DNA from: Vicinamibacteria bacterium
GTDB taxonomy: Bacteria; Acidobacteriota; Vicinamibacteria; Marinacidobacterales; Marinacidobacteraceae
DNA length: 64,000 bases
Assembly (NCBI GenBank): GCA_963422395.1
Contig: OY729431.1
Coordinates: 2,488,887 to 2,552,886, forward strand
Direction of reading: 5' to 3'
A program made the translations under genes and the position numbers. Below the pieces are notes generated by a model, which was given only the letters and a program-made list of their open reading frames with translations, ran no database searches and was not told the origin of the DNA. This document shows, one piece after another, positions 9,917-48,849 of this stretch; the stretch's first letter is position 1; the number at the start of each line of letters is the position of its first letter.

Positions 9917-11431
9917 CTACTCCAGCCGGTAGTTCGGCGCTTCCTTGGTGACCACCACATCGTGCGCATGCCCTTCGCGCTGCCCGGCCCCGGTGACCTG
10001 GACGAACTCGGCGCTCTCGGCGAGTTCAGCGATGGAGCGGCATCCGGTGTAGCCCATCCCCGAGCGGAGTCCGCCGACGAGCTGTTCCACCACCCCGGCC
10101 AGCGGCCCCTTCGTCGGAACCCGCCCTTCGATCCCTTCGGGGACCAGCTTCGACGGCTCGCGGCCGGTCTGGTAGTAGCGGTCCGCGGACCCGCCGCTCA
10201 TCGCTCCGAGCGACCCCATCCCTCGATACCCCTTGAAGGTGCGCCCCTGGTAGAGGATCGTCTCGCCGGGGCTCTCGTCGGTTCCGGCGAACAGATTGCC
10301 CACCATCACGCAATCGGCGCCGGCGCCGATGGCTTTCACGATGTCGCCGCTGAAGCGGATGCCGCCATCGGCGATCAGCGGCGGACCGCTCGCCGGGCGC
10401 ACCTGCCGGATCGCGGAGAACTGCGGCATTCCGGTTCCGGCCACCACTCGGGTGGTGCAGATCGAGCCGGGCCCCATGCCCACTTTCACTCCGTCGGCGC
10501 CGGCCTCCACCAGGTCGCGAGCAGCCTCGGCGGTGGCGATGTTGCCGGCCACCAGGTCCACGCCCTCGGGAAGGCGCTCCCGAAGCCGCCGCACGGTACC
10601 GAGGCCGGTCCCGGTGTGACCGTGCGCAGTGTCCACCACGATCGCATCTACCTGGCGCTCGGCGAGGAGTTCCGCGCGGGCCACCGCAGCCTCCCCCACG
10701 CCCACTGCGGCGGCACAGCGAAGACGGCCGAAGTCGTCCTTGGTGGCGTCGGGGTAGGCCATCGCCTTCTGGATGTCCTTGACGGTGAGGAGGCCGGCGA
10801 GCGTCCCGTGCTCGTCGAGGACCGGCAGCTTTTCCACCCGGTGCTCGTGCAGGATGGCCTTCGCCTCGTCGAGGGTGGTGCCGAGCGGGGCGGTATGGAG
10901 GGGCGAGCGGGTCATGAGCTCGGCCACCAGGAGATCGCCGCGGGTCACGAAGCGCAGGTCCCGGCTGGTCAGGATACCCACCAGCCGACCGGTCTCGACC
11001 ACCGGCAGGCCGGAAATCCCGTGGCGCTCCATGAGCCCGAGCGCCAGCTCGACCGGAGCGTCGGGGGGAACGGTGACCGGATCCACCACCATGCCGCTCT
11101 CCGAGCGCTTCACCTTGGCCACCTCGTCGGCCTGCTCTTCGGCGGAGAGGTTGCGATGGATCACGCCGATGCCGCCGAGCTGAGCGATGGCGATGGCGAG
11201 CCTCGCCTCGGTGACGGTGTCCATCGCAGCGCTGACCAGCGGGATGGCGAGGCCGATCCGGCGGCTGAAGCGAGTGCTCACCTCGGTGGCGGCGGGCAGC
11301 ACCTCCGAATACCGCGGCTTCAGCAGAACATCGTCGAAAGTGAGCGCGACGGCCGGACCTCGAGCCGGCTCCCGGGGCAGCTCACGAGGTTCGAGAGCGT
11401 CTGACGAACCCTGCGGATCGGAGGTCGGCAC
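9917..11431 (-). CDS. guaB: Inosine-5'-monophosphate dehydrogenase.
   Basis: [18 protein letters not shown] is present. The CBS pair reads [12 protein letters not shown]...ISGLPVV...[12 protein letters not shown]. The catalytic loop [11 protein letters not shown] is present, and the C-terminus has [12 protein letters not shown] and YRGMGS. The 1092-aa track ORF is an over-extension through secA. The start is assigned to the GTG at 11431, 14 nt after the secA stop; this is uncertain. Confidence 0.9.
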
Positions 11432-11445
11432 GGACAGCGGATCGC

Positions 11446-14232
11446 TCAGGCGGCGTGGCACTTCTTGTACTTCTTCCCGCTGCCGCAGGGGCAGGGCTCG
11501 TTCCTTCCCACCTTCTTCTGGCCGCTCCGGACCGGAATCACTCGCCCGCCACGCGGAGCGGCAGGCGCCGGCGTCCGCAGCCCGCCTCCACCGGGAGCAA
11601 CCGCAGCGATTCCCGAACCGGCAGCTGCGTCCGCAGCGGCTCCGTTTCCCGCTCCGCTGAGGACCAGGCGCGGCGCGGGGCGTGCCGGCGGAGGCGTCGG
11701 AGCGGCGCGAACCGCTTTGAGCACGAACAGCAGCCGCACCGTTTCCCGCTCGATGCGGTCCCACACCTCCTCGAACAGCGAGAACGACTCCTTCTTGTAC
11801 TCGATGAGCGGATCGCGCTGGCCGTAACCGCGAAGGCCGATTCCCTGTTTCAGGTGGTCCATCGAGTACAGATGGTCCTTCCACTGCGCATCGAGGATGT
11901 GGAGCATGATGTAACGCTCCTGGATGCGCATCAGCTCCGCGCCGATCTCCTGTTCCCTTTCGGTGTACCGCGCGGGAATCGCCTCGGCGAGCAGTTCTAC
12001 GACCTCGCCGCGCCCGAGCTCGTCGAAAGGAATGTCGTCTTTCGGTTCCGGAAGAAAGCCGTACTGTCCGCGGATTGCCTCGCGCAGCCCGGGGTAATCC
12101 CAATCGTCGGGATCCACTTCCTTCGAGAGCCGGGAGTCCACCAGGTTTTCCGCGGCGATCGACGCCAGATCGAGAACATATTCCCGCTGATCCTGCCCTT
12201 CGAGGATGCGGCGGCGGAGTCCATAGATGGCGACCCGCTGCTTGTTCATCACATCGTCGTATTCGAGCAGGTGTTTCCGGTAGGAGAAGTTCTGCGCTTC
12301 CACCTGTTTCTGGGCTCGTTCGATCGCCCGGGTAACCATTCCCGCCTCGACGGGAACTCCTTCCTCCATTCCCAGCCGCTGCATGAGCCCGCTCATGCGG
12401 CCGCTGCCGAAGATGCGCATCAGATCGTCTTCGAGCGAAAGGAAGAACCGGGAGCTCCCCGGATCTCCCTGCCGTCCGGAACGGCCCCGCAGCTGGTTGT
12501 CTATCCGCCGGGACTCGTGGCGTTCGGTCCCCACGATGTGCAGACCGCCGAGCTCCACCACCTCGTCGTGCGCCGCCCGGGTCTCTTCCCGGGCCTCGGC
12601 AACCGCGTTTTCCCAGACCTCGCCGGGCGCCTCCGTCCAGTCCACCCCTTCCTTGCGGAGCCGCGCCTTGGCGATCTCCTCGGGACTGCCGCCGAGCAGG
12701 ATGTCCGTGCCGCGGCCGGCCATATTGGTGGCGATGGTCACCGATCCGGCGCGGCCTGCTTGCGCCACGATCTCCGCCTCGCGCTGATGGTACTTGGCGT
12801 TCAGCACCACATGGGGAACCTGCTGGCGCTTCAGCAGCCGCGCGAGCCGTTCGCTCTTTTCGATCGAGGTCGTGCCGACCAGCACCGGCCGGCCCCGGCG
12901 CTGTTCTTCCCGGATTTCCTCGGCGATGGCATTCAGCTTTTCGCGCTCGGTGCGATAGACCACATCGGGATATTCGATGCGGACGAGCTCTCGGTTCGTG
13001 GGAATGGGAACGACTTCGAGCTCGTAGATCTTCTCGAACTCGGCGGCCTCGGTTTCGGCCGTTCCGGTCATGCCCGCGAGCTTCCGATACATGCGGAAGT
13101 AGTTTTGGAAGGTGATCGTCGCGAGCGTCTGGTTTTCCCGCTCGATCTTCACATTCTCCTTCGCTTCGACTGCCTGGTGGAGGCCGTCGGACCAACGCCG
13201 GCCCGGCATGAGACGCCCCGTGAACTCGTCCACGATGACGACCTTGCCTTCCTTTACCGTGTAGTCCTTTTCCCGCTTGTAGAGCGCGTGGGCACGGAGC
13301 GCCTGCAGCAGATGGTGCAGCAAGGTCATCTGCTCGGGCTCATAGAGGTTGTCCACCCGCAGCAGCTCTTCCGCCTTCGGAACACCCTCTTCGGTCAGAG
13401 TGACCGAGCGGGATTTCTCGTCCACGGTGTAGTCCACATCGCGGCGCAGCCGGGGAATGATGCGGTCCACCGTGTAATAGAGATCGGTGGATTGCTCCGC
13501 CGGGCCGCTGATGATGAGCGGTGTCCGCGCCTCGTCGATCAGGATCGAATCCACTTCATCCACGATGGCGAAATGGAACAGACGCTCCACTTCCTTGCCG
13601 TCGCGGCCCCGCTCGGTACGGGGGAAGATGCGGTGGACGAAGTTCTCGGCGCGGAACTTCATGTTGTCGCGCAGATAGTCGAATCCGAATTCGTTGTTCG
13701 TGCCGTAGGTGATGTCCGAGCCATAGGCGGCGCGTCGTTCCTCGTCGCCCAGGTCATGCTGGATGACTCCCACCTCCAGCCCGAGGAACCGATACAGCCG
13801 GCCCATCCAGTCCGCGTCGCGCCGGGCCAGGTAGTCGTTCACGGTGACCACATGGACTCCCATCCCGGAGAGTGCGTTGAGGACGGCCGGCAGAGTGGCC
13901 ACCAGGGTCTTTCCCTCGCCGGTCTTCATCTCGGCGATCCGCCCCTGGTGCAGGATGGCGCCTCCCAGCAACTGCACATCGAAGTGGCGCATCCCGAGGG
14001 TGCGCCGCGCCGCCTCCCGACAGACCGCGAAAGTCTCCGGCATCAGATCGTCGAGCGGCTCGCCGTTTTCGGCCCGCGACCGCAGCGCGGCGATCCGTTC
14101 GGGGAACTGCCGGTCCTCGATCCCGGAGAGTTCCGGCTCGAGAGCACCGACCCTGGCGACGAGCGGCCGCAGCCGCTTCAGCTCGCGCTCCGATTTCTTC
14201 CCGACGATGCTGGTGAGGACCTTCTGGAACAC
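11446..14232 (-). CDS. secA: Preprotein translocase ATPase SecA.
   Basis: 928 aa with a canonical SecA N-terminus ([21 protein letters not shown]). The DEAD motor motifs are present. The C-terminal zinc-binding tail reads [13 protein letters not shown]. Confidence 0.95.
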
Positions 14233-23333: not shown

Positions 23334-23530
23334 AGCAGCCTGTGGACGAAGTCACACGGCCAAAGGTCGGCGATGCCCAGTCCTCCCGGTGGGGGCCCCG
23401 GCTGAACCGCTTCGCTCGGCGCTGCGATTCCGTCGGAATACACCCGGTATGCCTCCCGAATCGCGCCTTGTCCGCCGGGCGCCTCCCCGACCTTGGGGCT
23501 CGCGCCACTTCATCCACAGACTGCTAGTCC
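23334..23530. mobile_element. MITE (~197 bp) with 21-bp terminal inverted repeats CTAGCAGCCTGTGGACGAAGT / CTAGCAGTCTGTGGATGAAGT.
   Basis: Near-perfect terminal inverted repeats and no coding capacity. The internal sequence matches the right end of the IS remnant at 20090..20160. It sits 31 nt after the rnd stop and 59 nt before the DAACS transporter start. Confidence 0.6.
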
Positions 23531-23588
23531 ATGCTCTCGCCGCTGTCGACCGCAGAACGGCGAAGCCTCTTCCCGCTCCGCTTTCATC

Positions 23589-24893
23589 ATGAAGAACACT
23601 CCCTGGTACCGCAAGCTGTGGGTGCAGATCCTCGCGGGTCTCGCCCTGGGCGTCGTGTACGGCGCCTTCGCCGCCGCCGCCGGCTGGACGGAGTTCACCG
23701 AGGACTTCATCGCGCCGTTCGGGGTGGTTTTCTTCAACGGCCTGCAGCTGATCGCGGTGCCGCTCGTTCTCGCCTCGCTCATCATCGGGGTGTCCTCGCT
23801 CAGCGACATGCGCAAGGTGAGCCGGATCGGCGGAAAGACGATCGCCATCTATGTGGCGACCACCGCGATCTCGGTCACCATCGGCCTCGCCTACGCCAAT
23901 CTGCTGCGGCCCGGCGACCAGGTGCCGGAAGCGCTCCAGCAGGAACTCTCCGAACAGTACCGGGAGGCCGCGGAGGGGCGGGAGGGCCAGGCGGCCCGCC
24001 TGATGGAAGAGCGCGGTCCGCTCAGCTTCCTACTCGACATCGTGCCCTCGAACGCGGTGTCTTCGGCCTCGAACAACCGGAACATGCTCCAGGTTGTGTT
24101 CCTGGCGCTGCTGTTCGGCATCGCGCTGCTCCGGATCCCGCAGGAGAAGGCAGCGCCGCTGATCGGCTTCTTCAAGGGACTCGAAGCGGTCGTCGTCGAA
24201 TTCGTCGGAATCGTGATGCGGATGGCGCCGCTCGGAGTGTTCGCGCTCATCGCCCGCGCCATCACCGGGATGGCCGGAGACGACCCGCAGCAGGTCGCGC
24301 AACTGCTCGGCGCGCTCGGGTTCTACTGCTTCGTGGTGATCGCCGGACTCGCGACCCAGATGCTGGTCGTCTATCCGCTGATCCTGAAGCTCTTCACTCC
24401 GATCCGTTGGCGGCGCTTCTTCCCCGCGGCCGGCCAGGTGCAGCTGGTCGCGTTCTCGACGAGTTCCAGCGGCGCCACTCTCCCGGTGACGATGGATCGC
24501 GCCCAGCGCGATCTGGGAGTGTCCGAGGAGGTTTCGTCGTTCGTCCTTCCGCTCGGAGCCACGATCAACATGGACGGCACCGCGCTCTACCAGGCGGCGG
24601 CGGCGATCTTCATCGCGCAGTCTCTCGGAATGTCCATCGGTCTCGAGGGGCAGCTGGCCATCGTGCTCACCGCGGTGCTCGTCTCGATCGGGACGGCGGC
24701 GGTCCCGGGCGCGGGGATCATCATGCTGGTCATCATCCTGCAGGCCATCGGAGTGCCCACCGAGGGGGTGGCGCTCATCCTCGGAGTGGACCGCATCCTC
24801 GACATGATGCGGACCGCTACGAATGTCACCGGTGACCTGACGGTCGCTTCGGTGGTCGCCGCCTCGGAAAACCAGCTCTCGATCCGGAAGTGA
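23589..24893 (+). CDS. Dicarboxylate/amino acid:cation symporter (DAACS family, GltP/GltT-like).
   Basis: MKNTPWYRKLWVQILAGLALGVVYG. Conserved DAACS hairpin motifs are present. Confidence 0.9.
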   Translation: MKNTPWYRKLWVQILAGLALGVVYGAFAAAAGWTEFTEDFIAPFGVVFFNGLQLIAVPLVLASLIIGVSSLSDMRKVSRIGGKTIAIYVATTAISVTIGLAYANLLRPGDQVPEALQQELSEQYREAAEGREGQAARLMEERGPLSFLLDIVPSNAVSSASNNRNMLQVVFLALLFGIALLRIPQEKAAPLIGFFKGLEAVVVEFVGIVMRMAPLGVFALIARAITGMAGDDPQQVAQLLGALGFYCFVVIAGLATQMLVVYPLILKLFTPIRWRRFFPAAGQVQLVAFSTSSSGATLPVTMDRAQRDLGVSEEVSSFVLPLGATINMDGTALYQAAAAIFIAQSLGMSIGLEGQLAIVLTAVLVSIGTAAVPGAGIIMLVIILQAIGVPTEGVALILGVDRILDMMRTATNVTGDLTVASVVAASENQLSIRK

Positions 24894-24976: not shown

Positions 24977-25451
24977 ATGTCCGCTACCAACTTCAACACC
25001 CGCAACGACACTTGGCGCAAACTGATGGCGAACGGCTTGAGTTACCGGGTGCCGAGGTTCCATAAGGGACTACAACTGGGGCCCGGAAGAGTGGGAGGAT
25101 CTCTGGCAGGACATCCTCGCCACCGTCGCACCGGGAGGCGAACCGGCTCATTACTTGGGCTACCTGGTTCTGCGCACCGACGACGAGAAACGCTTCGACG
25201 TCATTGACGGTCAGCAGCGCCTGACCACTCTCAGCATCCTGGTGCTGGCCGGGCTGCGCAGGCTCCGAGACACGATCGAAGCAGAGGAATCAGTCGAGGA
25301 GACGAAAAAGCGCCTCGATGGATTGCGCGGAGCGCACATCGGTTATATGGATCCGGTAACTCTGGTATCGGAAGCGAAACTGAAGCTGAATCGAAACAAC
25401 GACCACTACTTCCAGACCTACCTGATACCTCTGGTTAAACCTTTGCCCCCG
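24977..25451 (+). pseudogene. DUF262 (GmrSD-like, DGQQR ParB-like nuclease N-terminal domain) gene remnant, frameshifted and 3'-truncated.
   Basis: MSATNFNTRNDTWRKLMANGLSYRVPRF, then a 1-nt frameshift near 25061..25066, then DYNWGPEEWEDLWQDILATVAPGGEPAHYLGYLVLRTDDEKRFDVIDGQQRLTTLSILVLAG. These are the DUF262 hallmarks. The ORF ends abruptly where the IS-end fragment begins at about 25452, with the expected downstream domain absent. Confidence 0.6.
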
Positions 25452-25659
25452 CGATGACTGCAGGGGCGCGCGGCGGCGGTCGGCGCCGCGCTTTTCGCCT
25501 ACCGGAGCCGGGAAACGCCCGCCTGGGCCTGGATAGCGCCCTGTCGGGCGGTTTTCCCGCGCAGACCGCGCCCGCACGCCGTACTGCGCCGATCACGGCA
25601 CCCCCTCCGGGGCCGCTGATCCTCACCGATTACAGCAGTTTTTCCACAGGCTGCTAACC
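25452..25659. mobile_element. Truncated IS-end fragment, inverted relative to 19297..19505.
   Basis: About 90% identical to the left ~205 bp of the IS remnant, including the terminus ...cacaggctgctaa at 25659. The homology stops at about 25452. Confidence 0.55.
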
Positions 25660-26563: not shown

Positions 26564-26591
26564 CCGCTCGGGCGCGCCGCGCTCTTTTCCA

Positions 26592-27029
26592 TCACTCGCT
26601 ACCAGACCCTTTCGAGCGCGCAGCACGACCGACCCCGACTCCGACCCCGAGGGGGACGGAAGTCCAGAGTCCTAGTGCCAGAGGGAGACGAAGTCCCTCG
26701 ATCGGAAGGAGGAACGGGCCGTTCAGACGCCCGGTGAGGATCGCCGTGATCAGCCAGGCGCCGGCTCCGAATGTGATTCCGAGCCCGCCACCGAGAACGA
26801 GCCAGTCTCGAAACCTCGACTCGAAGAGAGTCCCCAGCCGAGTTCCGATGTGCACCCAAACCGGGAAGCCGAGCAGTATCCCGAAGGAAACGCCGAAACC
26901 CATCCGCAGCACATCCCACACGGACTCACGCTCTACGGCGACTCCCCACAGAACGAGCCCGATGAAGAAGCCCAACGCCAGGCTCACCCCTGGCCTCACG
27001 ACACTTGGCGCTACTTCGGTTACCGCCAT
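26592..27029 (-). CDS. Hypothetical 4-TM membrane protein, translationally coupled to the upstream Cys-rich protein gene.
   Basis: The start MAVTEV... overlaps the upstream stop (TGATG). It has four hydrophobic helices and Gly-rich turns. Local GC is low. Confidence 0.45.
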   Translation of the reverse strand: MAVTEVAPSVVRPGVSLALGFFIGLVLWGVAVERESVWDVLRMGFGVSFGILLGFPVWVHIGTRLGTLFESRFRDWLVLGGGLGITFGAGAWLITAILTGRLNGPFLLPIEGLRLPLALGLWTSVPLGVGVGVGRAARSKGSGSE

Positions 27030-27322
27030 CAGATCCAACAGGTAGAAAGGCAGTTGCTGAATCGATTCAGACATGCGTTCACTTCTTCGAGGTGTCTGTC
27101 GTAGCACTGTTCCAAGCAATTTTTCGCACCCCAGAACCCGCATTGGCGTGCACATGTCTCAAGGTCATCTTCCGCTGTCCGAAGGCAGTCGGAAAGATTA
27201 CCGCTGCACTCGGCCACACAGTCCTGCGGATTGGGTTGGGCACGACCGACAGCTGGAATTATGAGAAGAAGAAGAAGTCCGACATATGTGAGGGAGAATA
27301 GAAAAATTCGAAAAGTCTTCAT
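27029..27322 (-). CDS. Small secreted cysteine-rich protein (10 Cys, four CX3C motifs).
   Basis: An AGGAGA SD lies 8 nt before the ATG (MKTFRIF...). The signal peptide is MKTFRIFLFSLTYVGLLLLLIIPAVGRAQ. The mature ~69 aa contain CVAEC, CARQC, CLEQC and CLSTC plus two more Cys. Confidence 0.5.
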   Translation of the reverse strand: MKTFRIFLFSLTYVGLLLLLIIPAVGRAQPNPQDCVAECSGNLSDCLRTAEDDLETCARQCGFWGAKNCLEQCYDRHLEEVNACLNRFSNCLSTCWI

Positions 27323-27377
27323 GAGAGTTCTCCTGTTAGGCAGTTTCCGATGATCCATTTGGAAACAGCGGGAATCA

Positions 27378-27786
27378 CTATTCAGTCGAGAGCCGCTGCG
27401 ACAGCATCTCGAATCGTTTCACCTTCGCCTCCGTGAGGCTGGCAAGACGCGCCATCAGCTCAGCCAAATCCTCTTCTTGCATTCCACGCGTGCGAAGCAT
27501 CGACTCGATTTCGCGGAATCTGGTTTCATAGAGGGCTCTGAGGTCGATCTCGGCACTCCTTCTGCTCGGGACGAGGGGAGGACCTGGTCCATCGAAGGCA
27601 ACTGACGCTTCCGTAACCAGCGGCGCGTACGTCCGGGCAGTGGCCTCCGCCTGGCTCTGATCGACAGTCGCAATGGTTGGTGCCACGACCGAAGGGGTCG
27701 AGGTGTTTCCGGTACTGTCGCAACCGGAACCGACCGACAGCGCCGCGAAGATCGCAACGAGAAGGACGAGGGGGTTCTTTCGGAAC
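27378..27786 (-). CDS. Hypothetical lipoprotein with a C-terminal helical domain.
   Basis: Signal and lipobox MFRKNPLVLLVAIFAALSVGSGC. A Ser/Thr/Pro-rich linker is followed by a helical C-terminus. It is the first gene of the low-GC three-gene cassette. Confidence 0.5.
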
Positions 27787-28065
27787 ATGACGAGGGTCTC
27801 CTCTATGGAAAGTGTCAAGCCTTTGCTGATAGTTCGAGAAACCGGCCGAGTCGAGGACAACGGTTGCGAAGAATCACCCATCCTCGTGCGTCCTCGGTTG
27901 GGTCTCTACGAGTACCAACTGGTTTAGCGTGCCCCAATCCAATTTTCAACAGCAGATCCCCCGAAAATATCCTTCAGGCTCGGGATGGACCGGATCGCCG
28001 TATGGATTTGACTTTCGGTCTGGTTGTCGCAAGACTGCAGGTGAGGACCTCGAAGAAGGACGCGA

Positions 28066-29187
28066 GTGGCGGTTTCGGATCTCGAAGATCGGGGTTGCTG
28101 GTTCCGTGGCGCTGCCGGTGAGAATGCGGTCGAAGACGAAGACGAACGGCTCCCCGGAGAGACCGAGGGGCTGCCGGAATCGGGCGACATCATCCCGGAG
28201 CCGCCGGTCCCGGTAGGCGGGGCGGATGACCTGGGCATCGTGGGCCTCTATCTCCGGGACACCCGCCGGTGTGGTCGGCTTACCGGGAAAGATGAACAGC
28301 GGTGCGCCCGCTCCATGCGGAGGAACGCGCGAGGAAATCGAAAAGCCGAGCAGTCGGCCGCAGAGGCGGCCGCGTTCCATGCCAGCCGCCACCGGATGAT
28401 CGAGGGGAGCCTCGGACTCGTCGTTGCGATCGCAAGGGAATACGAACACCTGGGTCTGCCGCTTGAAGACCTCATCCAGGAAGGCAACCTCGGGCTGATC
28501 GCGGCAGTGGACAAGTTCGACCCCGAGCGGAACCTGAGGCTTTCGACCTACGCCGTGACCTGGATCCGAGAAGCGATCTGCCGGGCGCTCTCCCAGAAGT
28601 CCCGGACGATCCGGATTCCGCTCGACAAACTGGCGATTCGCCGCCGAGCGGCTAAAGTGCATGACGAGATAGAACAGCGGTACGGGAACGAGGCGTGCTG
28701 CGGTGGCTCTCGCCGGGCGCATACCCTGGAGGACGACGCCGGGGAACTCGGAGTGGATGCCGAAGTGCTGCGAACGACGATCCGGCTGGTGCCCGACATC
28801 GATCCGCTGGAGGACCGGCCGAGCGGCAGGCCATCCCTCTTGGCGTCGCTGCCAGACCCCCAGTCGCCGAATCCGGCGGACCGGGCTGCGGCTGCGGAGC
28901 AGCAGCAGCGAGTCAGGGACGCGGTTTCCGAACTCCCGCCCCGCCTGCAGTGGATCGTGCGGCGGCGCTATGGGCTTTCCGGCGGAGAAGAAGCCGGCTT
29001 GGCGAAGGTCGGACGCGAAGTGCGACTCTCCGCCGAGCGGGTTCGCCAGTTGCAGCGCCGAGCGCTGCGCCTGCTTCGTGGGATCCACGCTTCTTCTGCC
29101 GCGCGCACGGAACCGATCCGAGGTCGGCCCTCTCGAACCGCTTTGGCCCCTTTCGCCGGAGCGCCGCCCTTCAGATCGCCCGGATGA
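28066..29187 (+). CDS. Sigma-70 family RNA polymerase sigma factor (regions 1.2, 2, 3, 4).
   Basis: Region 2 reads LVVAIAREYEHLGLPLEDLIQEGNLGLIAAVDKFDPERNLRLSTYAVTWIREAI. A region 4 HTH near the C-terminus reads RRRYGL...RVRQLQRRALRLL. The N-terminus is acidic. Confidence 0.8.
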   Translation: MAVSDLEDRGCWFRGAAGENAVEDEDERLPGETEGLPESGDIIPEPPVPVGGADDLGIVGLYLRDTRRCGRLTGKDEQRCARSMRRNARGNRKAEQSAAEAAAFHASRHRMIEGSLGLVVAIAREYEHLGLPLEDLIQEGNLGLIAAVDKFDPERNLRLSTYAVTWIREAICRALSQKSRTIRIPLDKLAIRRRAAKVHDEIEQRYGNEACCGGSRRAHTLEDDAGELGVDAEVLRTTIRLVPDIDPLEDRPSGRPSLLASLPDPQSPNPADRAAAAEQQQRVRDAVSELPPRLQWIVRRRYGLSGGEEAGLAKVGREVRLSAERVRQLQRRALRLLRGIHASSAARTEPIRGRPSRTALAPFAGAPPFRSPG

Positions 29188-38146: not shown

Positions 38147-38447
38147 GTCAGGGTCTCCTCAGGATCTCCGGGAAGCGCACCGACCAGCGAGCACCGCGAA
38201 CCGGAGAGGCCCCGGACGCTATCCGCTCGCGAGCCGAGCCGTCAATGGCCACTCGGGGGCTGCGCCGGGGGAGCTTCGGACAGGCGGTCGCAGGGGAGCG
38301 GACCGAGGCCCCACGGAAAGCTGCTCTTCCCGCCTATAGAAGAGGATGTTGCGCTTGCTTCGCAGGGGCTCGATGGGTGTCCCCGCATGGATGACGATTT
38401 TTGTCCAGGTGATCGAGTATCCTGTCTTGCTTCAGACCCTCTCTGCG

Positions 38448-40700
38448 ATGCCTTCTCGATCTGATCACTATTTCGCGCACAGCGCCCCCTCCGAAAACCC
38501 GTCCTCGTGGCACCGGCTGGACGACCACCTCCGGCACACCGGAGACCGCGCCGCCGGCTTCCTCGAACGGGTCGGGCTCGCCCACTTCGGTCGGGCCGCC
38601 GGGCTCCTCCATGACCTCGGCAAGTACACCGAGAAGTTCCAGCAGAGGCTCCGCGGCGGCCCGCGCGTGAATCATTCGACAGCCGGAGCCAAAATCGCGT
38701 GCGAACGCTATCCAGGCATCATCGGAAAAATGCTGGCATTCGGTGTTGCCGGCCATCACGCGGGACTTGCGAATGGTGTGAACGGCGAGAAAATCACTGC
38801 CCTCGCCGATCGGTTGCGCGAAAACACCCCCGAACTCGACCCGTTATGGAGCCAGGAAATACAACTCCCGCCGCTTGGTCCACCGCAGATCCAGAGCCGC
38901 AGTCGGGAGAACGCCGGATTTTCCGGGTCGTTCCTGATCCGCCTGCTGTTCTCGGCCCTGGTGGACGCAGACTATCTCGATACCGAGGCCTATTACGCAA
39001 GAATCGAGAAAACGAGTCCGAGTCGCGGAGGCCACCCCTCACTCGGAATACTTCGCGACCGCCTCGATGCCCACCTCGAAGGGCTCACCGCGCGGGCCTC
39101 GGCCAGCGAAGTGAACGCGCTCCGCCGCGAAGTGCTGCACCACGCCAGAAAACGGGCAGTGGACACGCCCGGCCTCTTCACTCTCACGGTACCTACCGGC
39201 GGCGGCAAGACCCTCACTTCACTGTCGTTCGCCCTCCACCACGCCGTGCACCACGGGCTCGACCGGATCCTCTATGTCATCCCGTACATGAACATCATCG
39301 AACAGACGGCCGCTGTTTTCCGCGATGTCCTGCAAGACGACGAATCCGAGGGGCCGCACTTCGTGATCGAGCATCACAGCACCTTCGACGAGCAGCGAGT
39401 CGAGAAACGTTCCGGTAAAGAGAAACTCCGTCTCGCGATGGAGAATTGGGACGCTCCCATCGTGGTCACCACCGCCGTCCAGTTCTTCGAGAGCCTTTTC
39501 TCGAACCGCCCGTCCCGCTGCCGAAAACTGCACAACATCGCTGGCAGCGTCGTCGTCCTAGATGAGGCGCAGACTCTTCCCCTCGAATTCCTGCGCCCCT
39601 GCGTCGCCGCGATGGATGAGCTGGCGCGGAATTGGCGCGCCACCGTCGTCCTCTGCAGTGCCACGCAGCCGGCGCTGCGCGAGGAGAGCGGCTTCTGTGG
39701 CGGATTGCGCGAAGTGCGTGAACTCGCACCCCAACCGACTCGGCTCCAGCGAAGCCTAAAGCGAACTCGTATCCACCAAAAAGGCCCGATGGAGGACTCC
39801 GAGATCACCGAACGATTGCGTGGAACGCCGCAGGCACTTTGCATCGTCAACACGCGGGCCCACGCACGGGCTCTGTACGAAGCAATCGAAGATCAGGATG
39901 GGGCCACGCACCTCACCACTTCGATGTGCGCCCGTCACCGTCGGGAGATTCTGGAAGAAGTCCGCTCCCGGCTGACGATCGGTGAACCGATTCGGTTGAT
40001 CGCCACCTCACTGGTCGAAGCCGGGGTGGACCTGGATTTTCCGGTCGTTTGGCGTGAGGAAGCAGGCCTCGAATCCATCATCCAGGCGGCAGGACGATGC
40101 AATCGGGAAGGGAAAGCGCCGTCCGGAGATGTGATCGTGTTCCGTTCGCAAGCCGGTGGTCGAGGATTGCCCGAGATACGGAAGGCCGCAGACGCTGCGC
40201 GCCAGGTCCTCCGGAAGCACCAGGATCCCATGTCTCTGCCCGCCATCCAGGAGTATTTCCAGACGCGCTACTGGATCGAAGGAGATAATGCCTTGGACAC
40301 CAAGGGGATCCTTCCCATGCTCCGTGAACGGAAAAGGAGTCTCGACTTTCCTTTCGAAACGATCTCTCGTGCGTTCTGCCTGATCGAAACACCCATGGCC
40401 CCGGTGATCGTCCCCTACAGAGGCCGAGAGGGGAAAGACAGAACCGCAGACCGCCTGATCGCCGCTCTCGAGCATGAAGAGCGCCCCGGCTGGCTGGCGC
40501 GTAGTCTGCAGCCGTACACGGTCCCCGTTCCGCTGCTCGGCCGGAAATCTCTACTGGACTCCAGGGCCGCCCGGATCATCCGGGAGGCCGATTTCGACGA
40601 ACAGTTCGTCGTCCTCGACAACCGAGACATCTATCGGGCGGACATCGGCCTCACCTGGGACGATCCAAGCTTTCACAGCGTCGAGGGGCTGATCTGTTGA
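38448..40700 (+). CDS. cas3: CRISPR-associated helicase/nuclease Cas3 (HD domain plus SF2 helicase).
   Basis: The HD motifs HYFAHS and LLHDLGKY are at the N-terminus. Helicase motifs VPTGGGKT and VLDEAQ follow. The start is assigned to ATG 38448 (MPSRSDHYFAHS). The track start at 38346 adds non-conserved residues. Confidence 0.95.
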   Translation: MPSRSDHYFAHSAPSENPSSWHRLDDHLRHTGDRAAGFLERVGLAHFGRAAGLLHDLGKYTEKFQQRLRGGPRVNHSTAGAKIACERYPGIIGKMLAFGVAGHHAGLANGVNGEKITALADRLRENTPELDPLWSQEIQLPPLGPPQIQSRSRENAGFSGSFLIRLLFSALVDADYLDTEAYYARIEKTSPSRGGHPSLGILRDRLDAHLEGLTARASASEVNALRREVLHHARKRAVDTPGLFTLTVPTGGGKTLTSLSFALHHAVHHGLDRILYVIPYMNIIEQTAAVFRDVLQDDESEGPHFVIEHHSTFDEQRVEKRSGKEKLRLAMENWDAPIVVTTAVQFFESLFSNRPSRCRKLHNIAGSVVVLDEAQTLPLEFLRPCVAAMDELARNWRATVVLCSATQPALREESGFCGGLREVRELAPQPTRLQRSLKRTRIHQKGPMEDSEITERLRGTPQALCIVNTRAHARALYEAIEDQDGATHLTTSMCARHRREILEEVRSRLTIGEPIRLIATSLVEAGVDLDFPVVWREEAGLESIIQAAGRCNREGKAPSGDVIVFRSQAGGRGLPEIRKAADAARQVLRKHQDPMSLPAIQEYFQTRYWIEGDNALDTKGILPMLRERKRSLDFPFETISRAFCLIETPMAPVIVPYRGREGKDRTADRLIAALEHEERPGWLARSLQPYTVPVPLLGRKSLLDSRAARIIREADFDEQFVVLDNRDIYRADIGLTWDDPSFHSVEGLIC

Positions 40701-40948
40701 ACCGGCAGGGATCCGTTCCAACGCAGCGAGGTGGAGTTGCGGCTTCCCCGGAGACCTCCTGGAATTCGGGTTCCTCACCATGCGAACGAAAAGAGCCATC
40801 CTTCCCAGCCATGACGGGGGCCACCCGCTCCCAACGAGTCGCAGCACGGGGACTGAAACGGATGGCGAGTACCGATGAGGACTGTCGTCCCCGGCTCGCC
40901 CGGGGACTCGGATCGACGGAGAGTACAGAAGTTCGGGGGAGGAAGACG

Positions 40949-41150
40949 ATGCCCGACTCCACTCATGAATGGCCGGAAAGTCCTTCGGACTCTGGAGCGC
41001 CAAGGATTCGAATGCGTGCGCCGGCGGGGAAGCCACCGCATCCTTCGAACCTCTGCCAGAGGCAGCGAACGGGTGACAGTCGCCGGGAAATAAGGCGACG
41101 AGCTACGGAAGGGAACCCCGGTGGCGGTCTCCTTCGACCTGCTACCACCA
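40949..41150 (+). pseudogene. hicA-like mRNA-interferase toxin remnant, with an in-frame stop and a probable frameshift.
   Basis: MNGRKVLRTLERQGFECVRRRGSHRILRTSARGSERVTVAGK*GDELRKGTPVAVSFDLL aligns with the HicA family pattern (LeklGfelvrqkGSH...vtvP.H.gkdl..GTlrsIlkqagL). A TAA interrupts it at 41091..41093. A strong SD (GGGGGAGGAAG) serves an ATG at 40949 that is out of frame with the HicA frame at 40965. Confidence 0.4.
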
Positions 41151-41244
41151 AGAGAGCTTTCCACTGCCGCCGCCTCGACTGCAGCGTACCGGGAACGACC
41201 CCGGAGCGGCTGATGCGGGGCGGACTTCTCGCCGGGGCGGCCTG

Positions 41245-41916
41245 ATGTCGTACGGAGCAAGACTCCATGTGTGGGGCGATTACGCATGTTTCACTCGCCC
41301 CGAGATGAAGGCCGAGCGCGTCTCCTACGACGTCATGACACCGTCGGCAGCGCGTGGAATTCTGGAAGCGATCCATTGGAAGCCGGCGATCCGGTGGATC
41401 GTGGATCGGATCCAGGTGTTGAAACGGATCCGGTTCGAAACGATTCGAAGAAACGAACTCGGAAGCAAGATTCCGGCAGGAAACATCAGCGTCGCGATGC
41501 AGCGCGGCGACACCGGAGGTCTCGCCGTCTCGATCGAAAGCGACCGGCAGCAGCGCGCCGCCACCGTACTGCGCGATGTCGCTTATCTCATCGAAGCGCA
41601 CTTCATCCTCACACCCGTTGCAAACCCAGACGATACTCCGGCGAAACACGCCGCGATGTTCCACCGGCGCGCCGCTCGAGGGCAGTGCTTCCACCGACCG
41701 TATCTGGGGACCCGCGAGTTCCCGGCCCACTTCGCCCCGGTCCCGGATCCGCCGCCATCATCCTCCCTACCGACCGATCAGTGTGATCGTGATCTAGGCT
41801 GGATGCTGCACGACCTCGACTACGCGAATGCCGCGTCGCCCAGATTCTTCCGCGCAACGCTCCGGAATGGCGTGGTGCATGTCCCGCCGCTTGATTCAGA
41901 GGAGGTCAAGGGATGA
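41245..41916 (+). CDS. cas5c: Cas5c (Cas5d), type I-C.
   Basis: MSYGARLHVWGDYACFTRPEMKAERVSYDVMTPSAARGILEAIHWKP is the canonical Cas5d N-terminus. The stop overlaps the cas8c start (ATGA). Confidence 0.95.
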   Translation: MSYGARLHVWGDYACFTRPEMKAERVSYDVMTPSAARGILEAIHWKPAIRWIVDRIQVLKRIRFETIRRNELGSKIPAGNISVAMQRGDTGGLAVSIESDRQQRAATVLRDVAYLIEAHFILTPVANPDDTPAKHAAMFHRRAARGQCFHRPYLGTREFPAHFAPVPDPPPSSSLPTDQCDRDLGWMLHDLDYANAASPRFFRATLRNGVVHVPPLDSEEVKG

Positions 41917-43682
41917 GCATCCTCCAAGCACTCATCCAGCGCTATGAGCGACAGGCAGCACGCGACCAGGCGCCGAAGTACGGCTTTTCGGAGCAGAAAA
42001 TTTCCTATGCAATAGTAATCGATCGGAGCGGTCAGGCCATCGACACGATCGATCTGAGGGATACGAGCGGGAAGAAGCCGCGGCCCAGCAAACGCGAAGT
42101 GCCGAATCCCGTAGTCCGTACCGCCAAAATCCAACCCCAATTCCTGTGGGACAAGACTGCCTATGCCCTTGGAGTCAAGAAAGCCCAAACAGGTTCCGCA
42201 GTCCCCGCCGAACGGGGAGAGTACGATGCTTTCGTTTCCTGCCATCGGAAACTCCTCTCCTGTTCCGAAGATGATGGGCTCCAGGCATTTCTCGCCTTCC
42301 TCGATAACTGGCGGCCCGATCGCTACAGTGACCTCCGGAACAGCGACGACATGTTGGACACCAATGTCGTTTTTCGTTTCGAAGCCGATTCCAAATCGTT
42401 CTTGCACGACCGCCCGGCGGCGCGGGAAATCTGGGTGCGACTTCTGACAGGAAACGAGACCGAGCGACATCTGTGCCTGGTGACCGGCGAGCAACTCTCG
42501 ATAGCCCGGGTGCACTCCAAGATCAAGGGTGTCCGGGGCGCCCAGACTTCCGGGGCATCGATCGTCTCCTTCAACCAGAAGGCATTCAATTCTTTCGGAA
42601 AGGAACAGGGCGGGAACGCGCCGATCTCGGATCGCGCTGCTTTCGCATACACCACCTCACTGAACTCCCTTCTCGCCCGAGGCAGCCGCAATCGAATCCA
42701 GATCGGCGATACGACGACTGTGTTCTGGGCAGACTCCGGAGACGATCCAGAGAGTGCCGAAGCCGCCGATAGCCTGTTCTCTGCGCTCATGGGCGCGCCG
42801 CCGACCGACGAAGAAGAGGCAGCAGTGGTCCGGGACAAAGTCGAAAAATTTCAAGCCGGGCGTCCGGTCGAATCTGTCGAGCCGGGCGTTCAGGAGGACA
42901 CGCGCTTCTTCGTTCTTGGTCTCGCACCCAATGCGGCGCGCCTTTCCGTCCGATTCTGGCATGAAGACACGATCGGCCGCATGGGAGAACGGCTTCGAGA
43001 GCACTGGGGCGATCTTCATATCGAACCGGTCCCTTGGCACACGCCCCCGGATGCTTGGCGGCTCCTGCGCGAGACCGCCATTCAGGGCAAGTCGGAGAAA
43101 ATACCGCCAGTGCTCAGCGGCACGCTCATGAGCGCGATCCTCCGGGGCAGCAGATACCCTCGATCGTTGTTGGCCAATGTATTGCTGCGGATGCGCTCCG
43201 ACGGCAACATCAATGGGTTGCGTGCTGCGATCTGCAAGGCATGTCTCGCCCGCGACCATCGCTTCGGTCTCGAAGAGGAGGCACTCCCCGTGAGTCTAAA
43301 CCCCGACGAAAAAAACCCGGCCTATCGCCTCGGCAGACTGTTCGCCATCTATGAAGGCGTTCAGCAGGCCGCGATGGGACGACGGGTGAACGTGACGATC
43401 AAGGATCAGTTCTACGGATCCGCGTCCGCCACCCCGGCCGCGGTCTTTCCGGTAATCAACCGGAAGGCCGCCCACCACCTCGGATCCCTTCGCAAGGACA
43501 AAGGGGGGTTGGCCGTCTGGTACGAACGACACCTGGACGCGGTATTCGATGGCTTCGAGACGGCGTTCCCGCGCAGCCTCGGGATCGAGGAACAGGGCCG
43601 CTTCACCATCGGCTATTACCACCAGCGGGCAAGCCTCAAAGGGAAGCCCGCCAACGACAGCGTCGAGACGCCGGAGGAATGA
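41913..43682 (+). CDS. cas8c: Cas8c (Csd1) large subunit, type I-C.
   Basis: [14 protein letters not shown]... 589 aa, positioned between cas5c and cas7c, with Csd1-like conserved blocks. Confidence 0.95.
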
Positions 43683-44623
43683 ACATCATGTCAGCAATCC
43701 GTAACCGATACGATTTCGTGTATCTGTTCGACATCTCCAACGGAAACCCCAACGGAGATCCCGATGCCGGAAACCTGCCCCGGCTCGATCCAGAAACCAA
43801 CCAGGGTCTCGTCACCGATGTGTGCCTCAAGCGAAAGATTCGAAATTTCGTCACGATGACGAAGGGGGGCGAACCACCGTATGGAATCTATATCGCCGAG
43901 CGTGCCGTGCTGGAGCGGCTGCAGCAGCGTGCCTGGGATGCGATCGTCCCGGACGCCAGCGACGAAGCTCGGAAAAAGTTGCCGAAAGACGAGGCAAAGG
44001 CGCGAAAACTGACCCGATGGATGTGCGACAATTTCTTCGATGTACGGACATTCGGCGCGGTGATGTCCACGAAGGGCGCCAACTGCGGCCAGGTCCGGGG
44101 GCCAGTCCAGTTCTCGTTCGGCCGATCCGTTGAACCGATCGTCCCGCTGGAGGTTTCGATCACCAGGATGGCGGCGACCACACAGAAGGACGCCGACGAG
44201 AAGGGCGATGTTCGCACGATGGGGCGCAAGTACATCGTGCCGTACGGTCTGTATCGCGCCCACGGCTTCGTCTCGGCATGCCTGGCCGGAAACGGTGCCG
44301 GGGGAACCGGCTTCTCGCAAGAAGACCTGGATCTGGTGTGGACCGCCCTCGAACAGATGTTCGATCACGACCGCTCCGCGGCAAGGGGCGAGATGACAGC
44401 CCGCCGTCTCATCATATTCCGCCACGAGAGCACGCTCGGCAACACCGCCGCCCACCGACTCTTCGACCGCGTCCGGGTTTCGCGGATCCACGAGGAGCAG
44501 GAAGCCTCCCTCGGTGCACCTGCTTCACGGAGCCTGCCCCCGGCACGGTCGTACTCCGATTACTCCGTTGTCGTGGATGCCGAAAACCTTCCTGAAGGGA
44601 TCACGATCCTGGATCGGATCTGA
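43679..44623 (+). CDS. cas7c: Cas7c (Csd2) backbone subunit, type I-C.
   Basis: [51 protein letters not shown] is the Csd2 signature. Confidence 0.95.
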
Positions 44624-45273
44624 TGTGCGGCGAGGACACCGATGCCGCGGCGCCCATCTCCGAGAACGAACTCGTCCCGATTTCCGCTCTTCAACACCTG
44701 CTCTACTGTCCCCGGCAGTGCGCGCTGATCCATGTCGAGCGCCTGTGGATGGAGAATCGATTCACCGCCGAGGGTCGCATCCTCCACAACAAGGTCGAAA
44801 AAGCCGCTTCGGATCGCCGTTTCGGCGTCCAAACCGAGCGCAGCGTTCCCCTGCGATCCTGGCGCCTCGGCGTCTTCGGGATCGCCGATGTGGTTGAAGT
44901 TCACGACGATGGGTGCGTATTTCTCGTGGAGTACAAGCGAGGCCGTCCCAAGCAGCATCGCGCCGATGAAGTGCAACTCTGTGCACAGGCGATCTGTCTC
45001 GAAGAGATGCTGGATCGACAGATTCCCGGAGGTGCCTTGTTCTACGGCCGCACCCGCCGCCGGACGCCGGTCGTCTTCGATGCGGCACTCCGAGGCCTCA
45101 CCGAGCGCACAGCCAGGGGCGCCCGAAAAATGATCGCAACCGGGGTCACGCCCGCTCCGATCTATGAATCCTGGAAGTGCGAACCTTGTTCGCTGAAGGT
45201 CGTCTGTAAGCCCGAAAAAATGCAGCAGACCGCCACAGTCGAATCGTGGCTGGAGGAAGCGCTCGCTGACTGA
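44623..45273 (+). CDS. cas4: Cas4 RecB-like exonuclease with an Fe-S cluster.
   Basis: The N-terminal Cys (LLYCPRQ) and the C-terminal cluster WKCEPCSLKVVC are present, with a RecB nuclease motif. The TGATG overlap with cas7c indicates coupling. Confidence 0.95.
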   Translation: MCGEDTDAAAPISENELVPISALQHLLYCPRQCALIHVERLWMENRFTAEGRILHNKVEKAASDRRFGVQTERSVPLRSWRLGVFGIADVVEVHDDGCVFLVEYKRGRPKQHRADEVQLCAQAICLEEMLDRQIPGGALFYGRTRRRTPVVFDAALRGLTERTARGARKMIATGVTPAPIYESWKCEPCSLKVVCKPEKMQQTATVESWLEEALAD

Positions 45274-46800: not shown

Positions 46801-48849
46801 GTCGCCCCCCGCACGGGGGGCGCGGATTGAAACTTCTGGAATCGCACATTGGAGACATTGAATGCGGTGTCGCCCCCCGCACGGGGGGCGCGGATTGAAA
46901 CCGTGAGGCTGTCCAGGATCTCTCCTGCTATGTATGGTCGCCCCCCGCACGGGGGGCGCGGATTGAAACTCCTTTGCCGGCTTGCCGGCGGTTGATGTTG
47001 GAGTCGCCCCCCGCACGGGGGGCGCGGATTGAAACATCGCAGTCCGCGCATTTCCTCGCGTCGCTCTTTGTCGCCCCCCGCACGGGGGGCGCGGATTGAA
47101 ACGCACGCTGGGGCAGGAAAGCCGAAGAGCTCTATGTCGCCCCCCGCACGGGGGGCGCGGATTGAAACTCATCGAACCGGGGGCAAGCCCCCCAAAGGAA
47201 AAAGTCGCCCCCCGCACGGGGGGCGCGGATTGAAACATCGTGTTTTTCCTTTGCCGGCGGGCTGCCGGCGTCGCCCCCCGCACGGGGGGCGCGGATTGAA
47301 ACTGATCAGGATTGACAATCGCTAGCCGACTGCGCGACGTCGCCCCCCGCACGGGGGGCGCGGATTGAAACGAGTGAACGGAACGCCATTCGCGTAGGCA
47401 GCCGAGTCGCCCCCCGCACGGGGGGCGCGGATTGAAACTCGTCTGTACGGCGTGCTGGGCAGCCCGTAGGGCAGCGTCGCCCCCCGCACGGGGGGCGCGG
47501 ATTGAAACTCGTGTACGGGCTGGTCAGCCCGCCCAGCCCAGCGTCGCCCCCCGCACGGGGGGCGCGGATTGAAACAGTGGGGTGCCGCCGCCGCGCAGTC
47601 CGCGCAAAGTCGCCCCCCGCACGGGGGGCGCGGATTGAAACCCTCTCTGGTCGCGATCATCGGCAGTCTGCCGCGTCGCCCCCCGCACGGGGGGCGCGGA
47701 TTGAAACCCCACTTACTGCCACGCTGCCCTACCCCATGCGTCGCCCCCCGCACGGGGGGCGCGGATTGAAACCATATCCGCATCGCATTCCGCGCAGGCC
47801 TTCACGGTCGCCCCCCGCACGGGGGGCGCGGATTGAAACTATTCCATCCGGACTTGGTCCGACACCGCCTTGAGTCGCCCCCCGCACGGGGGGCGCGGAT
47901 TGAAACCACTTCCTGCTGACTGCGGCAGTCGGCATCTTGGTCGCCCCCCGCACGGGGGGCGCGGATTGAAACTTTGTCTCCTCCTCGATTTCCGCCCATC
48001 GGCGAAGGACGTCGCCCCCCGCACGGGGGGCGCGGATTGAAACTCCTTTGGCGGCCGGCGGCCGCCGTGTTGTTTGAGTCGCCCCCCGCACGGGGGGCGC
48101 GGATTGAAACGCTAGGCGGGCGTTGGATTTGCGCCTCCCGCCGCCGGTCGCCCCCCGCACGGGGGGCGCGGATTGAAACGTTGGATGCGGCCCGGACCAA
48201 AGCTCCTTGCATGCGTCGCCCCCCGCACGGGGGGCGCGGATTGAAACCTCCTTTCGGCGGCCGGCGGCCTCCGTGTTTGAGTCGCCCCCCGCACGGGGGG
48301 CGCGGATTGAAACGGTTGCGATTCGTGGAGTATGTCTGCTCGAATCGGGTCGCCCCCCGCACGGGGGGCGCGGATTGAAACCCTTCATCGCAACCGAACA
48401 CCGCCCCCGGCGGCGTCGCCCCCCGCACGGGGGGCGCGGATTGAAACCTTTGGCGCCGGGTTAGGCGCCGGTTTGATTCGCGTCGCCCCCCGCACGGGGG
48501 GCGCGGATTGAAACCAAGTGCACCTTGCCGGAGTGCTTTGAGGACCTGGGTCGCCCCCCGCACGGGGGGCGCGGATTGAAACTTCCTGGATTCGCGGCGA
48601 TGATGCCGTGTTTCCTGTCGCCCCCCGCACGGGGGGCGCGGATTGAAACCGCGCGCGTGTCTGTCCCTAGTGGGGACGAGCTGCGTCGCCCCCCGCACGG
48701 GGGGCGCGGATTGAAACGCCAAAGCATCGCTGACGCTCGCGAAGCCCGCGGTCGCCCCCCGCACGGAGGGCGCGGATTGAAACTCCATGGATTGGCGCCG
48801 AGGAACCGGTGTTCCCGTCGCCCCCCGCGCGGGGGGCGCGGATTGAAAC
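46801..48849 (+). CRISPR. Type I-C CRISPR array: 31 repeats of the 33-bp GTCGCCCCCCGCACGGGGGGCGCGGATTGAAAC and 30 spacers of 32-38 bp.
   Basis: Repeats start at 46801, 46869, 46937, 47003, 47070, 47136, 47204, 47270, 47339, 47406, 47476, 47543, 47609, 47675, 47740, 47807, 47874, 47940, 48011, 48078, 48147, 48215, 48281, 48349, 48415, 48482, 48550, 48617, 48685, 48751 and 48817. The last two carry point mutations (GGAGGG and GCGC). The repeat forms a 7-bp GCCCCCC/GGGGGGC hairpin. Confidence 0.97.

Follow-up and report, generated by a model that had tools for sequence, protein, structure and literature searches.

A rare, horizontally acquired four-gene module in a marine Acidobacteriota genome encodes a predicted ten-cysteine helical hairpin, a small membrane protein and a sigma factor

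Background

What is a cassette of three small envelope-protein genes, low in guanine plus cytosine (GC) and without recognizable family signatures, doing beside a sigma factor gene in the GC-rich genome of a marine Acidobacteriota? The question is raised by a stretch of 64,000 nucleotides (nt), hereafter the window, from a Vicinamibacteria bacterium (assembly GCA_963422395.1, contig OY729431.1, positions 2,488,887 to 2,552,886 of the forward strand). An initial annotation, made from the letters alone, had pointed out three packed minus-strand genes, here called A, B and C in the order in which they would be transcribed, and had suggested a secreted disulfide-rich peptide (B) with a cognate immunity or receptor membrane protein (C). 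Here we report that these genes and the adjacent sigma-70-family gene are a rare, horizontally acquired accessory module, and that B, as judged from sequence comparison, is a conserved gene under purifying selection. A bacteriocin-like or signaling peptide with an immunity or receptor partner is the most plausible guess at the function, a guess based on layout. For its more specific form, a mobile sigma-linked module with an exported, disulfide-laddered bacteriocin-like effector and a cognate membrane partner, we put the probability at roughly 0.35. The features concerned are the following, in window coordinates.

26564 to 29170: inserted block (2,607 nt) with genes C, B, A and sigma, between the stop codon of the phenylalanine hydroxylase (PAH) gene (26563) and that of the GAF-PP2C phosphatase gene (29171)
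26592 to 27029, minus strand: gene C, 145-amino-acid (aa) predicted inner-membrane protein with four transmembrane (TM) helices
27029 to 27322, minus strand: gene B, 97-aa precursor with a 28-aa Sec signal (27239-27322) and a 69-aa acidic mature domain (27032-27238) with 10 cysteines
27323 to 27377, minus strand: A-B spacer, 55 nt, with the B Shine-Dalgarno sequence AGGAGA at 27334-27329
27378 to 27788, minus strand: gene A, 136-aa putative lipoprotein, publicly annotated (P0003)
27789 to 28065: intergenic region of 277 nt separating the divergent genes A and sigma, GC ~0.56
28066 to 29187, plus strand: sigma-70-family gene, 373-aa open reading frame (ORF) from GTG 28066, the last 17 nt overlapping the 3' end of the GAF-PP2C gene

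Results

Composition and gene organization

The GC content reaches a minimum of 0.50 at 27250-27549, compared with 0.67-0.72 in the flanks, in agreement with the sharp drop against flanks of ~70% that had been described. At third codon positions (GC3), the values are 0.50 for B, 0.69 for A, 0.71 for C and 0.75 for the sigma gene, compared with a window background of 0.814 +/- 0.049 and with 0.82-0.87 in the flanking genes. B lies 6.4 standard deviations under the window mean. By this measure codon usage clearly differs from background, and the compositional anomaly reaches into the sigma gene.

The tight packing of the three minus-strand genes was found as first described, with the 55-nt gap between A and B and a TGATG motif in which the TGA stop of B and the ATG of C overlap by one base (27029). 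Two details of the initial annotation had to be corrected. The AGGAGA located 6 nt ahead of the B ATG is not the only strong Shine-Dalgarno sequence in the region, since GAGGAGA (27803-27797) lies 8 nt ahead of the A ATG; and because that ATG occupies 27788-27786, the feature ends at 27788 rather than at 27786. The A-B spacer has no significant RNA structure (z = -0.09) and no Rfam match, and no Rfam family was found in the whole block. The 277-nt region between A and the sigma gene presumably holds the promoters of both.

Insertion at a recurrent hotspot

Syntenic regions of related Acidobacteriota metagenome-assembled genomes (Vicinamibacteria / 'Ca. Marinacidobacterium') were fetched with PAH as the anchor (PAH identity 68-79%). 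In all 13 relatives with the region, the PAH gene is followed by a tail-to-tail GAF-PP2C phosphatase gene and then a DUF1554-like gene, and none of the 13 carries A, B, C or the sigma-70 gene. The PAH/phosphatase junction measures only 0-58 nt in seven of them, and in the other six (L002, L007, L012, L013, L014 and L015, at about 10860-12600 in each) it is occupied by unrelated inserts of 274-1779 nt. For example, the insert of L014 has a 468-aa Phage_Mu_F-like ORF, that of L002 is repetitive (774 nt), that of L013 contains uncharacterized ORFs (1.5 kb), and those of L007 and L015 are ~0.6 kb each with lower GC. The convergent PAH/GAF-PP2C junction is a hotspot at which related genomes have repeatedly acquired insertions, and the four-gene block in the window is a horizontally acquired accessory module. 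We found no flanking repeats, nearby tRNA, integrase or att-like scars at the block. The assembly is confirmed by a 1.2-kb Logan contig with 100% identity to the window, although this contig does not count as an independent copy.

The synteny also separates the two neighbors that the initial annotation had named. The sigma gene lies inside the same inserted block and is absent from the relatives, and thus belongs with the trio, a closer tie than the initial annotation had assumed. The GAF-PP2C phosphatase gene is present in every relative without the cassette and is therefore a resident gene, so that its nearness is incidental. At the other edge of the block, 28 nt separate the stop codons of PAH and C, and in this gap a GC-rich hairpin is followed by TTTTCC (26570-26584, plus strand). 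From its sequence, this is likely to be the intrinsic terminator of PAH, kept at the insertion edge.

Gene B encodes a predicted ten-cysteine hairpin

B is uncalled in the public annotation, and the public protein collection lacks its product at both possible lengths. As first described, it has a clean signal peptide and a 69-aa mature domain with ten cysteines. The signal is of the Sec type, with an MKTFR start, a hydrophobic core and AVGRA directly before a Gln at the cleavage site. The cysteines are at positions 35, 39, 46, 57 and 61 and at 69, 73, 84, 91 and 95, giving the spacing 3-6-10-3-(7)-3-10-6-3, in which each mirror pair sums to 130. This mirror rule is exact in all four known modules (B, its homolog P0004 and both modules of the homolog P0006, with loops of 7, 7, 11 and 8 residues), and the probability of such a mirror arising by chance is ~1.2e-5 per module. 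AlphaFold2 (AF2) predicts two helices (residues 32-61 and 67-95) joined by a 5-residue loop, with a helix pLDDT (predicted local distance difference test) of 87-96. The five cysteines of each helix fall inside an 80-degree arc, on one face, and CX3C motifs on the two helices stand in mirrored positions (C57-x3-C61 with C69-x3-C73; C35-x3-C39 with C91-x3-C95). Taken together, the mirror-symmetric spacing and the hairpin model imply a five-rung disulfide ladder. The simplest reading of the model is that B would be an alpha-hairpin zipped by five disulfides, a pairing that we infer from the mirror spacing.

Homology searches place B in no known family. Neither B nor P0004 matched anything in Pfam or NCBIfam at E <= 1, including DUF326/Csp, and fold searches with B gave generic helical hairpins only. 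In a profile search of the PDB, the best matches were the scorpion toxins Ts16 and kappa-KTx3.1, at a non-significant E of 0.05-0.06 and over only 21-23 residues at the central CX3C-loop-CX3C turn.

Genes A and C and the sigma factor

Gene A begins MFRKNPLVLLVAIFAALSVGSGC, a signal sequence ending in Cys. This signal, which includes the invariant Cys23, leads into a linker of ~55 aa rich in Pro, Ser and Thr, after which a helical domain of ~55 aa completes the protein. The lipobox is imperfect, with SVGSG ahead of the Cys and a non-canonical residue at -3. In the A homolog of contig L082, described below, the Cys is invariant and follows LTVG, downstream of a Tat-like SRRKFIRG.

The downstream partner of B was correctly called a small polytopic membrane protein. 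C has four hydrophobic helices (about 13-34, 37-68, 71-98 and 111-139) with very short loops and no soluble domain. An N-in/C-in topology is predicted, in keeping with an acidic loop 1 and the basic character of both loop 2 and the C-terminal tail. The single-sequence AF2 model of C has a pLDDT of 60. A possible internal 2+2 TM duplication was rejected, its score of 38 against 31 +/- 7 for shuffled sequences not being significant. The public call of C (P0001) has 160 aa and starts at ATG 27074, 45 nt inside B. The C homologs of L082 and L085 start within a few residues of ATG 27029, indicating that the public start is too early. No solved or curated relative of C was found in Pfam, NCBIfam, PADLOC or the PDB.

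The sigma factor is group-1/2-like, with regions 1.2-4.2 at residues ~104-344 (RpoS/SigA matches at E about 1e-37) preceded by a unique, acidic N-terminus of ~100 aa. Its best matches in NCBIfam and the PDB are RpoS, RpoD and SigA, and it is neither of the extracytoplasmic function (ECF) type nor TcdR-like. Compared with sigma factors of plasmids and phages it is a generic RpoS/RpoD relative (<=38% identity), with a match to phrog_351. We also considered the MZA anti-phage system, since the sigma domain matches MzaA with 103 bits in PADLOC; in NCBIfam, it scores 154 bits versus a cutoff of 800. The match reflects the generic sigma domain only, and A, B and C have no PADLOC matches, so this candidate was rejected. 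Among A, B, C and their homologs, no anti-sigma domain or other Pfam/NCBIfam domain was detected.

Recurrence and rarity

An exhaustive HMMER scan of 1.84 billion representative proteins with mature B returned three proteins. P0004 (96 aa) is 60% identical to B (E 4e-20), keeps all ten cysteines and has the same signal and mature layout; P0005 has 48 aa; and P0006 (247 aa, E 8e-4) contains two tandem B modules. B is thus conserved at 52-60% identity with all ten cysteines and the spacing between them unchanged.

The gene for P0004 lies on an unrelated 52.6-kb contig, L082, in a stretch bounded by ribosomal-protein, rpoA and EF-G genes at one end and by asparaginase and DinB genes at the other. 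Ahead of it stands a gene for a 132-aa A homolog with a Tat-type signal (26-27% identity, E 7e-8), and 17 nt after it begins one for a 134-aa C homolog (45% identity, E 2e-35). Next comes a sigma gene, 47% identical to that of the window (E 2e-84) and convergent with the trio rather than divergent. The L082 module has a GC3 of 0.69-0.76, compared with 0.84-0.89 in its flanks. Since the four genes are linked here in another context and with another sigma orientation, their co-occurrence argues for functional linkage rather than shared regional ancestry.

In the Tara scaffold L085, P0005 (361-507) consists of a lipoprotein-type signal (LLAA before the Cys) fused to helix 2 of B only, with five cysteines. 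An intact C homolog (45% identity) begins 10 nt after it, and neither A nor a sigma gene is nearby. P0005 may represent either the remnant of a deletion or a working single-helix variant with a lipid anchor. The trio that the initial annotation saw as a unit is thus co-conserved, together with the sigma gene, in L082, and as B plus C in L085; in all three loci the gap between B and C is at most 17 nt. In P0006 (L083, 10001-10744), a secreted protein, two ten-Cys hairpin modules stand in tandem and are joined by another Cys-rich region at the tail, which indicates that the B module is also used as a repeat unit in larger secreted proteins. Its gene is located just downstream of that for a 2,971-aa CLIPPER-repeat adhesin-like protein.

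The ratio of nonsynonymous to synonymous differences per site (pN/pS) is 0.34 for B, 0.52-0.65 for C, 0.61 for the sigma factor and 0.68 for A, with synonymous sites near saturation. The 60%-identical homolog with its ten cysteines kept and the pN/pS of 0.34 indicate that B is not a chance ORF.

With three loci and one distant two-module protein among the 1.84 billion representatives, B is very rare, which is typical of strain-specific accessory or competition genes. In indexed protein searches, B had no match, C matched only itself, and a profile of the B family recovered P0004 and P0005 alone. DNA-level scans of Joint Genome Institute metagenome contigs (with the C and B profiles) and of viral contigs yielded no relatives, and plasmid and phage records gave only generic sigma similarity when compared with B, C and the whole block. 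The suggestion that the genes belong to no described family is supported by the lack of significant matches to A, B and C in Pfam, NCBIfam, PHROGs, PADLOC and the PDB, and no homolog with a housekeeping function appeared in the library and protein searches. The rarity of C is less secure than that of B, because the indexed search with C missed the 45%-identical homolog in L082. Since small ORFs are under-called and C was searched at the protein level by word index only, the family may exceed its apparent size.

Other features near the block

Upstream of PAH, the sodium:dicarboxylate symporter gene (23493-24893) shares the strand of PAH in the window. All the relatives (L002-L016) have it on the opposite strand and ~3 kb further off, which indicates a local rearrangement. 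Between this SDF transporter gene and PAH, ~1.1 kb from the block, a local GC dip (0.56) contains a truncated GmrSD_N (DUF262) restriction-endonuclease fragment (25155-25457, plus strand, 100 aa, E 1.7e-9), which from its sequence looks like a decayed defense gene. Further along, the window has a type I-C CRISPR-Cas locus at 38340-45270 on the plus strand: Cas3 (38340-40697), Cas5d (41077-41913), Csd1/Cas8c (41895-43679) and Cas4 (44596-45270). The cas genes have a GC3 of 0.70-0.73, under the window background, and are followed by a CRISPR array (46867-48849) of ~29 repeats of GTCGCCCCCCGCACGGGGGGCGCGGATTGAAAC with a period of ~66-67 nt.

Discussion

A possible effector and its membrane partner

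The bacteriocin-like reading would work as follows. The group-2-like sigma factor may drive the adjacent A-B-C operon, a regulation that we infer from their linkage. A and B would be exported, B through Sec, with its signal cut after AVGRA, and thiol oxidation in the periplasm would fold B into a 69-aa acidic hairpin with the probable rungs C35-C95, C39-C91, C46-C84, C57-C73 and C61-C69. C, a minimal four-helix inner-membrane protein, would be the cognate partner of B; the TGATG overlap suggests that C is translationally coupled to B and made in step with it. In this scheme B might act as the exported effector, a bacteriocin-like toxin, with C as its immunity or recognition protein and the putative lipoprotein A as an accessory for handling, release or extra protection. 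The layout resembles that of class II bacteriocins, with a gene for a four-TM protein, a putative immunity gene, coupled to B in all three loci. The truncated B next to an intact C in L085, with no A or sigma gene, looks like a decayed toxin gene with an orphan immunity gene at its side.

Several observations weigh against this interpretation. The signal of B leads only through Sec, the host is a diderm and the block has no exporter or outer-membrane release system, so B might never leave the periplasm; an ABC or type I secretion exporter and a double-glycine leader are lacking both in the 2.6-kb block and in the L082 module. Mature B is acidic (11 D/E versus 5 K/R, net about -6), and most membrane-active bacteriocins differ in this respect. 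C exposes hardly any loop by which it could bind B. The proposed regulation finds no promoter tie to the operon, since a consensus scan of the 277-nt region found no sigma-70-type promoter and a comparison of the upstream regions of the window and L082 gave no convincing shared motif. A TTGACA is present upstream of A in both, with no usable -10 element in the window. The half-length B of L085 has an uninterrupted ORF and a lipoprotein-type signal of its own and may be functional rather than decayed, and P0006 has no C-like neighbor. Finally, the co-occurrence base is thin, with two full four-gene copies and one partial one.

Alternative explanations

Another potential role, which we consider unlikely, is envelope-to-sigma signaling, in which C would be a minimal polytopic anti-sigma factor or sigma tether modulated by a redox-sensitive B and by A, and the sigma factor would report periplasmic redox, the envelope state or an extracellular cue. 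In its favor, the sigma gene accompanies the trio in each of the two full copies, even though the gene order is rearranged. The strongly basic loop 2 and C-terminal tail of C would find a counterpart in the strongly acidic N-terminus of the sigma factor, the ten cysteines of B would suit a redox switch, and lipoproteins and small periplasmic helical proteins are common as envelope-stress modulators. The logic would be akin to that of SdpC-SdpI-SdpR or CarQ-CarR. However, A, B and C have neither an anti-sigma domain nor any cytoplasmic domain, and the sigma factor is RpoS/SigA-like rather than ECF, a group for which membrane anti-sigma factors are unusual. L085 has a B variant and C without a sigma gene, and the extreme rarity and mobility of the module fit accessory warfare genes better. 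A narrower form of the idea, in which the exported ten-Cys cystine-ladder hairpin is sensed by C, which then tethers or releases a dedicated non-ECF (RpoS/SigA-like) sigma factor, making the 2.6-kb block a mobile plug-in circuit, is more doubtful still.

It is improbable that B is instead a periplasmic metal or redox buffer, a dimeric four-helix bundle storing Cu(I) or another thiophilic metal in the manner of Csp, with C and A as accessories and the sigma factor as a metal-stress regulator. Ten cysteines per 69 residues, confined to a single face of each helix and often arranged as CX3C, recall the Csp copper-storage proteins and would be suitable for such a role, and a hydrophobic stripe that can be read beside the cysteine stripe could support dimerization. 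Yet no DUF326/Csp or metal-binding family matches at E <= 1, the monomer model is a two-helix hairpin rather than a four-helix bundle, and mirror-related cysteines are expected of cross-helix pairing, whereas a metal cluster needs no mirror. In addition, Sec export into an oxidizing periplasm favors disulfides, and the block has no His/Met-rich motifs, transporter or resistance genes.

We also hold it improbable that the block was left behind by a phage or another mobile element, with C as a holin-like or superinfection-exclusion protein, A as a spanin-like or exclusion lipoprotein, the sigma factor of phage type and B as an accessory periplasmic protein. Lysis and exclusion cassettes typically include small multi-TM proteins and lipoproteins, and phages encode sigma-70-type factors, as the phrog_351 match recalls. 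The insertion hotspot holds a phage Mu F-like gene in L014, and the window contains the truncated GmrSD gene and the type I-C CRISPR-Cas locus. However, A, B and C match neither PHROGs nor PADLOC, endolysin and integrase genes, repeats and att-like scars are all missing from the block, no relatives appear in viral contigs, phage records or plasmids, and the four-gene set of L082 has no phage genes around it.

That B is a chance ORF and the block decaying foreign DNA is very improbable: B is uncalled publicly, and the GC is low, known domains are lacking and homologs are very few, but B is conserved at 52-60% identity with the ten cysteines and their spacing kept, pN is lower than pS in all four genes, the starts, Shine-Dalgarno sequences and translational coupling are intact, the AF2 fold is confident, and a separate Logan assembly yielded the identical sequence.

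The predicted product of B would be a new bacterial domain, a 65-70-aa alpha-hairpin with five mirror Cys pairs (predicted disulfides) versus the two disulfides of animal and plant cystine-stabilized alpha/alpha (CSalpha/alpha) peptides, and such scaffolds are attractive as hyper-stable mini-proteins. The module itself is a compact mobile four-gene unit that combines a full-length RpoS/SigA-like sigma factor with three envelope proteins, an arrangement without a described counterpart. If B is a toxin or a signal, the module would represent a new bacteriocin-like or signaling system of uncultured marine Acidobacteriota. Because B is uncalled and C mis-started in the public annotation, such families are probably under-counted.

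Comparison with known systems

In fold, the nearest parallel is with the CSalpha/alpha helical hairpins, such as the scorpion kappa-KTx toxins (Ts16, kappa-KTx3.1; PMC11722136) and the plant alpha-hairpinins (PMC4695807). Both these peptides and B are secreted helix-loop-helix proteins with CX3C motifs on antiparallel helices, disulfide-linked in the former and predicted to be so in B. However, the CSalpha/alpha peptides are eukaryotic, have ~25-35 aa and two disulfides, and are encoded without a membrane-partner or sigma context, whereas B is bacterial, with 69 aa and five predicted rungs; at E ~0.05, the resemblance is one of structural analogy, not homology. Mirror-related cysteines on alpha-hairpins are also found in the mitochondrial twin-CX3C (small Tim) and twin-CX9C (CHCH) proteins, where they are oxidized to disulfides. 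These have two disulfides only and belong to the eukaryotic intermembrane space; B had no CHCH match, and P0006 reached an E of only 0.078 against CHCH. Csp1 and Csp3 (DUF326) share with B helices lined with many cysteines, often as CX3C, that face a common core. In contrast to the two-helix model of B with its mirror-paired cysteines, they are four-helix bundles that bind Cu(I) on reduced thiols and are Tat-exported or cytosolic.

In layout, one parallel is the SdpC-SdpI-SdpR system of Bacillus subtilis, in which a Sec-exported, disulfide-containing toxic peptide is paired with a polytopic immunity protein that relays to a transcription regulator. SdpI has six TM helices, SdpR is a repressor of the ArsR type rather than a sigma factor, the host is Gram-positive, and there is no homology to the block. 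A second is provided by gallocin A and related class II bacteriocins, disulfide-stapled helical hairpins with an adjacent gene for a small membrane immunity protein (PMC10100652). Like B, these are ribosomal, unmodified secreted peptides with a small membrane protein gene next to them. They differ in their Gram-positive hosts, double-glycine leader and ABC exporter, two-peptide nature, single disulfide per peptide, cationic/hydrophobic character and quorum-sensing regulation, and no sequence relationship between them and B was detected.

The association with a sigma factor has its parallel in clostridial loci with a dedicated sigma factor (TcdR, UviA, BotR, TetR; PMC4885068, PMC10467148) and a small holin-like membrane protein (TcdE, UviB; PMC9527704). 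There as in the block, the genes are accessory and mobile, and a sigma-70-family gene stands beside a small multi-TM gene and an exported product, a toxin or bacteriocin in the clostridia and predicted here. The clostridial sigma factors belong to group 5, whereas that of the window is RpoS/SigA-like, and the clostridial toxins are large proteins of Firmicutes without Sec signals. A, B and C fall in no described family, and by analogy they appear to stand closest to the CSalpha/alpha peptides in fold and to bacteriocin/immunity or sigma-controlled toxin loci in layout.

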